From: a virus
Lineage: Duplodnaviria; Heunggongvirae; Uroviricota; Caudoviricetes
DNA: 64,000 bases
Strand: one strand, 5' to 3'
IMG/VR virus record: IMGVR_UViG_3300010401_000032
Coordinates: 26,145-90,144 of that record
Shown: in pieces, positions 16,141-16,557 of the stretch
Layout of the letters: every line of letters begins with the position of its first letter
Position numbering within the stretch: position 1 is the first letter of the stretch
Program-made: the position numbers and the translations under genes
Notes under the pieces: model-generated
The model's input: only the letters and a program-made list of their open reading frames with translations
What the model was told of the DNA's origin: nothing
Database searches by the model: none

Positions 16141-16217
16141 GGGCCATTAGTTCCAACAGGAAGAACAGCAAGCTCTAACCTTGCGTGCTGCGAGTTCGAA
16201 TCTCGCATGGCCCTCCA
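16141..16217 (+). tRNA. tRNA with anticodon CUA (amber/UAG suppressor), class I
   Basis: Perfect cloverleaf. Acceptor GGGCCAT/ATGGCCC. D-stem GTTC/GAAC. Anticodon stem GCAAG/CTTGC with loop CTCTAAC (U33, anticodon CTA, A37). Variable GTGCT. T-arm GCGAG-TTCGAAT-CTCGC. Discriminator U, CCA encoded. Confidence 0.7.
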
Positions 16218-16248
16218 GTTAGTTTATTATTTAAAGGAAGATAAAATC

Positions 16249-16557
16249 ATGCAATAGACCCATTTTTATGTTTTAATTCGCCGAGACTTGTCACCGGCTC
16301 AACAAATAGTGCAAGCGTGCCATGCGGCCCACGAAAGCGGCCAGCGTAGCGATTTTGATAATACGCTTTCAATGGTTTTGTGTCAAGCTGACACAGAAGA
16401 CCAACTAATACAAGAAAGCGAATACCTTGATGCGTGCGGCATCGAGCATATTCTATTCCGTGAATCGGATATGAATAATCAGGCAACGGCCATCGCTACG
16501 TTGCCATTAGGAGCAAAGCATCGTAAGCTTCTTAGTCATTGGAAACTGTGGAGGTAA
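16249..16557 (+). CDS. PTH2-family peptidyl-tRNA hydrolase-like protein with in-frame TAG at codon 3
   Basis: RBS AGGAAG 8 nt before ATG 16249; reading ATG CAA TAG ACC CAT TTT TAT GTT TTA ATT CGC CGA GAC TTG... Residues YVLIRRDL + QQIVQACHAAH match the PTH2 N-terminal strand + KIAAQCSHAA active-site motif. No canonical start codon exists after the TAG in frame before TTG 16288. Confidence 0.5.

Follow-up and report, generated by a model that had tools for sequence, protein, structure and literature searches.

A suppressor tRNA and an early in-frame stop codon as a probable translational gate on a Pth2-type hydrolase of large phages

In a virus of the Caudoviricetes (IMG/VR record IMGVR_UViG_3300010401_000032), the gene for an amber suppressor tRNA stands directly ahead of a gene for a hydrolase related to peptidyl-tRNA hydrolase 2 (Pth2), and the third codon of the latter is an in-frame TAG. 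The stretch analysed here covers 64,000 nucleotides (nt), positions 26,145 to 90,144 of that record, and is referred to below as the window. We consider it likely, on comparative grounds, that the tRNA and the stop codon form a two-part translational gate, in which the co-encoded amber suppressor would license synthesis of the Pth2-type hydrolase and thereby couple the dose of the enzyme to stop-codon suppression. The elements at the locus are as follows:

16141–16217, plus strand: suppressor tRNA gene with anticodon CUA, which reads UAG (ARAGORN; Rfam RF00005).
16218–16248, plus strand: AU-rich spacer of 31 nt between the 3' end of the tRNA and the start codon (from the sequence).
16249–16257, plus strand: two-codon leader and in-frame amber codon, ATG CAA TAG, followed by A (UAG-A) (from the sequence).
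16258–16557, plus strand: hydrolase-like open reading frame (ORF) of the Pth2 fold (PF01981 superfamily), 99 codons plus TAA at 16555–16557 (Pfam, profile comparison with the PDB, AlphaFold2, Foldseek and PHROG).

The tRNA assignment of the original prediction was borne out by ARAGORN, which places a 77-nt tRNA at 16141–16217 (+) with the anticodon CTA at position 35, and by a full-length match to Rfam RF00005 of 53.8 bits (E 2.6e-10) that exceeds the gathering score of 29. The cloverleaf is regular and of class I, with a 7-bp acceptor stem, a 5-nt variable loop, discriminator U73 and an encoded CCA, and the anticodon loop (CUCUAAC) has seven nucleotides with U33 present and a purine at position 37. 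It is one of 20 tRNA genes that ARAGORN finds in the window, spanning 15.4–29.8 kb and all on the plus strand, and its closest paralogue among the other 19 is at most 69% identical. A blastn search with this tRNA against the phage collection returned no matches, and an Rfam scan around it found neither a ribozyme nor any other RNA family beside it. The distance from the tRNA to the hydrolase start had been given as 32 nt and is in fact 31 nt, while the reported Shine-Dalgarno (SD) sequence AGGAAG and the start at ATG 16249 were correct; the SD lies at 16235–16240, within the spacer and 8 nt ahead of the ATG. Since the spacer has only 31 nt and a scan of it found no promoter-like and no terminator-like site, the tRNA and the hydrolase gene are probably carried on one transcript.

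The start of the gene reads AGGAAG, 8 nt, ATG (16249) CAA TAG (16255) ACC CAT TTT TAT GTT TTA ATT CGC CGA GAC TTG (16288), and the first ATG, GTG or TTG past the TAG is indeed TTG 16288. This arrangement could also be read as a true two-codon mini-ORF, ATG-CAA-TAG, with the hydrolase made from TTG 16288 or by non-canonical reinitiation and the suppressor present by coincidence or for the sake of other genes. TTG 16288 is used by gene callers (database protein P0001 begins at it), and the two-codon bar minigenes of phage lambda offer a precedent for such short units. The first beta-strand of the protein (strand 1, HFYVLIR) is, however, encoded at 16261–16281, 5' of the TTG. In the AlphaFold2 model, which was built with 121 homologues and is confident (predicted local distance difference test, pLDDT, 93.9; predicted template modelling score, pTM, 0.85), this strand comprises residues 2–8 after the TAG, so that a start at TTG 16288 would delete it, as had been proposed. 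No SD precedes the TTG. The PF01981 match to the read-through protein (16.1 bits, E 0.014) begins ahead of the TTG, at protein residue 7 (profile position 4), and drops to 12.3 bits for the TTG-start version.

The early stop recurs among relatives. A protein search yielded five close homologues (L001 and L003–L006), and the DNA of each was read. L004 is near-identical to the window and keeps the early in-frame stop. At 72% identity, L003 has a different tRNA-CUA directly upstream, reads ATG GCA TAG ACA CAT and has CTG at the place of the TTG; L006 (63%) likewise has a tRNA-CUA, reads ATG CAA TAG ACA CAT and has CTC there. The remaining two read ATG TCC TAG ACA CAT (L001, 58%, on a 162-kb contig) and ATG CAG TTC ACG TAG followed by the conserved strand (L005, 46%, on a GC-rich contig, with a tRNA-CUA). 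The leader codons thus vary among the five homologues while the early stop stays, and, given the CTG of L003 and the CTC of L006, TTG 16288 is not a conserved start. The pattern ATG-NNN-TAG is kept in L001, L003, L004, L006 and L027–L029, and an early TAG is kept among homologues down to approximately 30% identity.

Wider sampling comprised scans of IMG/VR (12 and then 80 loci), tblastn against GenBank phages (37 jumbo-phage records) and a genome collection (two loci in metagenome-assembled genomes, MAGs, of Planctomycetota). For each locus a script found the conserved R-x-D motif, walked upstream to the first in-frame stop, listed the starts on both sides of it and ran ARAGORN. The non-redundant set holds 81 loci from IMG/VR, GenBank phages, metagenomes and the two bacterial MAGs, with GC contents from 27 to 64%. 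In 54 of them strand 1 is preceded by an SD and ATG, 2–8 leader codons and an in-frame stop; past that stop no ATG occurs before the strand is reached, and no GTG or TTG falls within four codons of it. The same leader with an ATG soon after the stop occurs in 10 of the 81, ordinary starts are found in 14, and 3 are unclear. The stop of the 54 gated loci is TAG in 52, TGA in 2 and TAA in none; the background, taken as the first upstream stop in the 14 loci with ordinary starts, is TGA in 9, TAG in 3 and TAA in 2. This enrichment of TAG (52/54 versus 3/14) corresponds to a Fisher p of 1.7e-8, a value that is indicative, as the lineages are not independent. Leaders of two codons predominate (36 loci), ahead of those of three (10) and four (6), which puts the stop at codon 3–5 in 52 of the 54. 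In 52 of the 54 the base 3' of the stop is a purine (28 A, 24 G); the other two have C, and T does not occur.

These figures bear on separate initiation of the hydrolase as well. The 10 loci with an ATG shortly past the stop would suit it; the 54 gated loci offer no such codon, and in the clade of the window the short stretch from the stop to strand 1 shows conservation at the protein level (T-H-F-[Y/F]). The survey bears equally on the suspicion that the TAG stems from faulty sequencing or from a recent mutation that inactivated the gene and left a pseudogene. A single C-to-T change would turn CAG into TAG, and several GenBank records leave the gene unannotated or give it in truncated form. 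The same feature is nevertheless present in independent assemblies, in 54 diverged loci and in cultured phages, with the downstream ORF intact and conserved, and we give this explanation virtually no credence.

The suppressor and the stop also correspond to each other. A tRNA-CUA was found in the fetched flanks of 40 of the 52 TAG-leader loci, usually within 5 kb and often 40–70 nt upstream, and a tRNA-UCA in the flanks of none of the 52; a spacing of 37–70 nt between tRNA and stop is seen also in L003, L005, L006, L014, L031, L032, L049 and L083. Both TGA-leader loci have a tRNA-UCA in their fetched flanks and neither has a tRNA-CUA: L078 reads ATG AAA TGA at 4974 with the tRNA-UCA 257 nt away, and L041/L011 has TGA at codon 10 with the tRNA-UCA 4.5 kb away. 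The anticodon accordingly matches the stop in 42 of 42 loci with a suppressor (40 CUA with TAG, 2 UCA with TGA; Fisher p = 0.0012, again indicative for lineages that are not independent). Judged from their sequences, L078 and L041/L011 are opal versions of the gate in which a change of the stop went along with a change of the suppressor anticodon, and such covariation is what co-adaptation of the two predicts. Separate initiation leaves it unexplained, and with the evidence from strand 1 and the missing SD we regard that alternative as very unlikely. At the level of sequence comparison the gate itself is well supported, and with it the proposal that synthesis of the full-length hydrolase depends on the neighbouring suppressor (54/81 loci with the leader, 42/42 with matching stop and anticodon).

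Linkage of the tRNA to the hydrolase gene is broader than the gate, since a tRNA-CUA adjoins 7 of the 14 homologues with ordinary starts. The pair of a tRNA-CUA and an amber-gated Pth2-like gene is present also on two contigs of Planctomycetota MAGs of 2.0 and 1.7 Mb (L107 at 3870–4310 and L108 at ~3980–4980). The neighbours at L107 are cellular (a PolX/PHP polymerase, an FGE-sulfatase and a redoxin), with no phage genes within 4 kb. This bare pair and the seven ordinary-start homologues beside a tRNA-CUA indicate that tRNA and hydrolase travel together.

The identification of the hydrolase draws on profiles and fold. A profile of 23 family members matches Pth2 chains of the PDB (24bt_A, E 3.7e-6; 2zv3_A, E 9e-6), 22 of the 23 members match PF01981 at E <= 1 with a best E of 3e-11, and the window ORF matches PHROG 3668, 'hydrolase', at E 3e-5. 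In a Foldseek search of the PDB with the model, all 13 matches at E <= 0.001 are chains of the Pth2 fold with TMq 0.73–0.83; 12 are named Pth2/Bit1 or are structural-genomics orthologues, and the other is Ta0108 (1rlk). The top matches are 2zv3, 1q7s, 1wn2, 3erj and 1xty, and the template modelling (TM) score to archaeal and human Pth2 is ~0.8. The phage protein shares with these enzymes the fold, the R-x-D-L...Q..HA motif and a similarity detectable at the profile level.

Whether the window is recoded as a whole was judged from its ORFs, and it uses the standard code, with no genome-wide recoding of TAG, in agreement with the original prediction. Read in the standard code, ORFs of at least 100 amino acids (aa) account for 85% of the window, and its genes are closely packed and start with ATG. 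In a greedy set of 103 ORFs the stops are TGA in 51, TAA in 36 and TAG in 16, and long genes at 6672–8093, 34531–35775 and 43417–44676 end in TAG. A scan of the 64-kb window for other early in-frame stops found 10 TAG versus 9 TAA and 9 TGA, thus no excess of TAG, and reading TAG as sense merges few adjacent ORFs, with a gain not above that for TGA or TAA. Intergenic units of the form SD-ATG-x-TAG number only two in the window, namely the hydrolase leader and a mini-ORF at 16560–16586 that is described below. A candidate for a further gated unit at 45703–45711 (ATG AAA TAG ctt tcg TTG) was dropped for want of an SD and because of a TTG two codons on, and the TAG-joined same-frame ORF pairs at 43417–45093 and 47205–48731, each with an ATG of its own, were set aside as well.

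A recoded code in many genes, with TAG as sense (as in code 15) and the hydrolase as one instance among them, would agree with the fact that recoded phages carry suppressor tRNAs, and a gene caller did translate the homologues of L003 and L109 with TAG as glutamine (Q). The coverage of the window by standard-code ORFs, its long genes ending in TAG, the small number of ORFs merged by reading TAG as sense and the absence of an excess of early TAGs all speak against this, as does the report on phage XacN1, whose authors tried read-through of 18 amber stops and obtained nothing from it. We hold such recoding to be highly improbable here. The source of the window is a large lytic phage of the T4-like kind: the window encodes an RIIA homologue, a nicotinamide phosphoribosyltransferase and a class II ribonucleotide reductase, and relatives were found on contigs of 160–190 kb. 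A megablast search with its 14–20 kb region against 50,697 phage records gave no match.

Several observations weigh against our reading of the locus, and they concern the enzyme, the suppressors and the statistics alike. As for the enzyme, the identity put forward in the original prediction stood at the level of family profile and fold, and fell short at that of the single sequence, the PF01981 score of the window protein being under the gathering score of 23; from sequence and model, the protein is best described as a divergent relative of the Pth2 fold and not as a canonical PF01981 member by the single-sequence criterion. At ~20% identity to Pth2, and in a hidden Markov model (HMM) alignment to 24bt and 2zv3, the N-terminal motif of the phage family is two residues shorter and lacks Gly-Lys, with conserved Gln residues there, and an invariant Glu (F-x-E-P-D) lies opposite the D-A-G region of Pth2. 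A lysine is regarded as catalytic in Pth2, and work on the Sulfolobus enzyme reportedly points to two conserved catalytic residues, the Lys in G-K and the Asp in D-A-G. Because the Gly-Lys of the Pth2 motif is missing, the substrate may be other than classical peptidyl-tRNA. In 12 of the 52 TAG-leader loci no tRNA-CUA lies in the fetched flanks; there the tRNA may be elsewhere in the genome, as in Ralstonia phage RsoM2USA. The suppressors of different loci differ in acceptor stem and discriminator, and their isotype is heterogeneous: that of L017 is similar to a phage tRNA-Lys, that of L003 has a tRNA-Gln-like acceptor end, and that of L006 resembles, by eye, the second tRNA-Gln of the window. 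The inserted amino acid would thus probably differ from lineage to lineage, which fits a stop sited in a non-conserved leader. The non-independence of the lineages means that the Fisher p-values overstate significance. Finally, a pure timing role for the gate seems weak, because the tRNA and the gene probably share a transcript, which would make such a role redundant.

Some of these points lend themselves to a different view, in which read-through is real and the gate serves no regulatory purpose. With a suppressor tRNA already beside the gene, a stop in its dispensable N-terminal leader would have become harmless, and the early TAG would now be a neutral or 'addictive' ratchet that forces retention of the tRNA, or would ride along on a mobile tRNA cassette. 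The residues of the leader show no conservation, so that any inserted amino acid would be tolerated; the isotype origins of the suppressors are heterogeneous; the cassette seems mobile, given the range of GC content across loci and its presence in MAG chromosomes; and 14 homologues have ordinary starts, half of them beside a tRNA-CUA. A ratchet of this kind would, however, predict in-frame TAGs in other genes, and none are seen to accumulate in the window; across all loci the excess of SD-ATG-leader-TAG units followed by a long ORF (64 with TAG versus 17 with TGA and 7 with TAA) is almost entirely due to the hydrolase family. A single mutation could turn TAG into any of seven sense codons, and yet it has been kept over the whole range of divergence given above, and the swap to TGA together with tRNA-UCA looks like co-adaptation. 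Neutral retention fails to explain that the stop is confined to this gene, that it sits at codon 3–5 and that its purine context is constrained, and we consider it unlikely.

If the amber codon is a gate, its operation can be pictured as follows. The phage suppressor tRNA would be transcribed with the gene, and host enzymes would process and charge it. A ribosome would start at SD-AUG-CAA-UAG-A; without charged suppressor, release factor 1 (RF1) would terminate after the dipeptide or the dipeptidyl-tRNA would drop off, and no enzyme would be made, because no start codon lies between the UAG and the first beta-strand. Where charged tRNA-CUA decodes the UAG, the full 101-residue enzyme would be produced. 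Classic work on amber context has established that a 3' purine favours suppression over the release factor, and the purine after the UAG, possibly helped by the very short nascent chain, would favour the suppressor over RF1 at this site. Enzyme output would therefore track suppressor activity, and a stop this early would cost almost nothing when it is not read. The most likely purpose would be to couple the dose of the enzyme, as a peptidyl-/N-acyl-aminoacyl-tRNA hydrolase, to the activity of the suppressor. This could be damage control, with the enzyme freeing for reuse those tRNAs that read-through, stalling and drop-off have trapped, or it could be negative feedback on the suppressor itself, comparable to the in-frame UGA of the release factor 2 (RF2) gene. 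We infer the charging of the tRNA, the read-through product, the substrate of the enzyme and the regulatory purpose, and thus also the role of a 'switch' that the original prediction assigned to the locus.

An extension of this scheme, a 'suppression homeostat', we regard as doubtful. The Pth2-like enzyme would act specifically on the aminoacyl- or peptidyl-tRNA of the suppressor itself or on read-through products, the amber leader would be the sensor, and the pair would set a fixed level of UAG read-through; in the clade of the window, the mini-ORF behind the hydrolase gene would extend the signal to the downstream gene. If true, such a homeostat would be a tRNA-level analogue of RF2 autoregulation, working in any cell entered, and the cassette is sufficiently mobile to be met with in jumbo phages of many hosts and, as a bare island of two genes, in Planctomycetota chromosomes.

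The RF2 gene, prfB, contains an early in-frame UGA that is bypassed by a +1 frameshift, and its product senses its own stop, which results in autoregulation. Common to prfB and the phage hydrolase are an early in-frame stop near the start of a translation-related gene and synthesis that is set by termination versus alternative decoding; at the phage locus, in contrast, the frame is unchanged and a dedicated co-encoded tRNA would do the decoding, whereas prfB senses its own release factor. The bldA tRNA-Leu(UAA) of Streptomyces reads the rare sense codon TTA in scattered developmental regulators. There, too, particular genes are licensed by one specialised tRNA, but the codon is a sense codon and not a stop, and the targets are not physically linked to the tRNA as the hydrolase is. 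The bar minigenes of lambda have the form AUG-NNN-stop and yield dipeptidyl-tRNA that is recycled by Pth. Two AUG-NNN-UAG units likewise flank the hydrolase gene of the window; the bar minigenes, however, share no frame with a downstream ORF and involve no suppressor read-through, and a link between drop-off at the leader and the hydrolase would be speculation. Synthetic gates, finally, use an early amber codon and an inducible suppressor tRNA to tighten expression; the logic is alike, although those are engineered and the arrangement described here is natural and conserved.

Nearest in kind are the recoded gut phages (crAss-like, Lak and others), which carry suppressor tRNAs and for which post-transcriptional gating of phage genes has been proposed (Borges et al., 10.1101/2021.08.26.457843; Peters et al., PMC9523058). 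In these phages as in ours, a phage suppressor tRNA would make in-frame stops readable in a standard-code host. There, in-frame stops are numerous and spread over dozens of genes, mainly late and lysis genes, and coding density collapses when the standard code is applied; here the code is standard, and within the window the affected protein gene is a single one, for a tRNA-metabolism enzyme, with one stop at codon 3–5, usually beside the tRNA, in a cassette that recurs. The Borges et al. preprint (10.1101/2021.08.26.457843) does not mention 'hydrolase'. On comparative evidence, then, the system is set apart from genome-wide recoding by the standard code, the one conserved target, the one early stop, the covariation of stop and anticodon, and the presence of the cassette among cellular genes in a Planctomycetota MAG. 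In keeping with the original claim of novelty, our searches of the PMC and bioRxiv literature found no description of a suppressor-tRNA/Pth2 cassette. Pth2 is an archaeal and eukaryotic enzyme; the hydrolase described here occurs in phages whose bacterial hosts have the unrelated Pth1 as their own enzyme (PMC4929431).

The leader is found in cultured phages of standard-code hosts. It reads ATG GCA CAA TAG in Cronobacter phage GAP32 (NC_019401, GAP32_397), where the annotated gene is truncated; ATG TCT CAC TAG in Yersinia phage fHe-Yen9-04 (NC_042116, at 289,1xx), where the gene is unannotated; ATG ACT TAG in Acinetobacter phage ME3, which has an annotated 'anticodon CTA' tRNA ~430 nt upstream; and ATG TTG TAG in RsoM2USA (MG752970, at ~69.2 kb), where the gene is again unannotated. 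A tRNA-CUA lies 3–4 kb downstream in GAP32, fHe-Yen9-04 and Pectobacterium phage CBB. The paper on RsoM2USA reported one CUA suppressor in the genome without a specific target and pointed to the general abundance of UAG, and that on XacN1 reported two CUA tRNAs whose target could not be found.

In jumbo phages of Xanthomonas and Stenotrophomonas the Pth2-like domain is fused behind an HD-like domain (also in L040 and L076). It forms the C-terminal part of a protein of ~280 aa in XacN1 (L019, ORF364), Xoo-sp13 (L020, Xoo-sp13_327) and RAS14 (L026), and the fused ORF of these three is preceded by an ATG-AAA-TAG or similar leader. No ATG occurs in RAS14 for 115 codons past the TAG, and the start given in its annotation falls 22 codons into the conserved N-terminal region. 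The HD-like domain of the XacN1-type phages has no sequence match in the PDB and a sub-threshold match to Pfam HD (E 0.036).

Annotation of the family is affected systematically. Many of its database proteins read M-x-Q..., and in both cases in which the DNA was checked a TAG stands at the Q (P0002 from L003; P0014 from L109, ATG GCT CAC TAG); the Q results from a translation table with TAG as Gln applied to short contigs. Others in the set P0001–P0121 are cut inside strand 1. Together with the genes missing or truncated in the records of GAP32, fHe-Yen9-04 and RsoM2USA, this amounts to a systematic error.

Suppressor tRNAs have repeatedly been reported in standard-code jumbo phages without a known target, and we propose that the hydrolase gene is a first conserved cognate target for them, the covariation of stop and anticodon tying the two together. 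If the gate is regulatory, it could constitute a natural and portable amber-suppression switch tied to tRNA recycling, with a bearing on the cost of read-through to phages, on the route from the standard to a recoded code, and on synthetic biology. Several cultured phage-host pairs make the gate directly testable.

Near the hydrolase, some loci carry other genes with the SD-ATG-leader-TAG start. Those of L054 (at 5998) and L074 (at 6233) encode the motif FFSIR.HHW..SDD.R..HDHPWW and have no usable ATG past the stop, and those of L025 (at 3900) and L079 (at 5320) encode HD-like proteins (Pfam HD, E 0.036). These genes may belong with the hydrolase to a small suppressor-dependent regulon; the window itself contains neither the FFSIR.HHW-motif gene nor the HD-like gene.

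Downstream of the hydrolase gene the window holds two further features:

16560–16586, plus strand: amber-gated mini-ORF, ATG CTA TAG ATT TTT AAA CCT CCC TAA, that is M-L-(UAG)-I-F-K-P-P-stop (sequence, conservation).
16646–16981, plus strand: conserved neighbour gene for a protein of 111 aa (conservation).

The mini-ORF begins 2 nt past the hydrolase stop, and its SD (GGAGG) lies within the last codons of the hydrolase gene. Its pattern, M-x-TAG-x-x-[K/R]-P-P-stop, is present in six lineages, namely the window, L001 (4625–4651), L003 (1234–1260), L027, L028 and L029. Among the window, L001, L003 and L029 all changes after the TAG are synonymous (ATT/ATC, TTT/TTC, AAA/AAG, CCT/CCG/CCA), and in L027 and L028 the two residues after the TAG vary while K/R-P-P-stop is kept. 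The synonymous changes and the retention of K/R-P-P-stop argue that the mini-ORF is translated beyond its UAG. Pro-Pro-stop is a slow-termination motif. In four of the six lineages the Pro codons are predicted to pair with the SD (an SD:CCUCC hairpin) ahead of a U-run; the z-scores of -0.35 to -1.6 are not significant, L001 and L029 lack the hairpin, and the terminator scan does not call it. That the mini-ORF could control the downstream gene at 16646–16981, by stalling at Pro-Pro-stop or by means of an SD:CCUCC attenuator hairpin, is only a hypothesis.

The neighbour gene follows the hydrolase gene directly in L001, L003, L005, L006, L027–L029 and L031, the GC-rich loci L005 and L031 included. 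In L006 it overlaps the hydrolase stop directly, and the mini-ORF is absent. Searches with the 111-aa protein found no Pfam or PHROG match, BLASTP showed no similarity to the N-terminal domain that is fused to the hydrolase in L086, and the AlphaFold2 model, despite a pLDDT of 93.6, has no significant fold match in the PDB. The protein has the invariant motif RK..I T..LNLYHE.R....H, which in the clade of the window takes the form RKTG...RITAALNLYHE.RGS.YRHN, and its gene may be part of the cassette.

The tRNA region of the window has some features of its own. The 3' CCA is encoded in 20 of the 20 phage tRNA genes between 15420 and 29836. Several tRNAs have variable regions that are unusually long for the assigned isotype (examples are 'Lys-ctt' at 92 nt, 'Asn-gtt' at 89 nt and 'Thr-tgt' at 87 nt), which points either to wrong isotype calls or to atypical tRNAs. 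Right after the tRNA-Gln at 16987–17059, positions 17064–17132 (+) give a borderline Rfam tRNA match of 29.7 bits (gathering score 29) without an ARAGORN call, and may be a degenerate or unusual tRNA. Interspersed in the region are Cys-rich ORFs at 15512–16069 (-) and 17601–18455 (-), the second with a weak match to an HNH endonuclease, which look like homing-endonuclease-type insertions among the tRNA genes.

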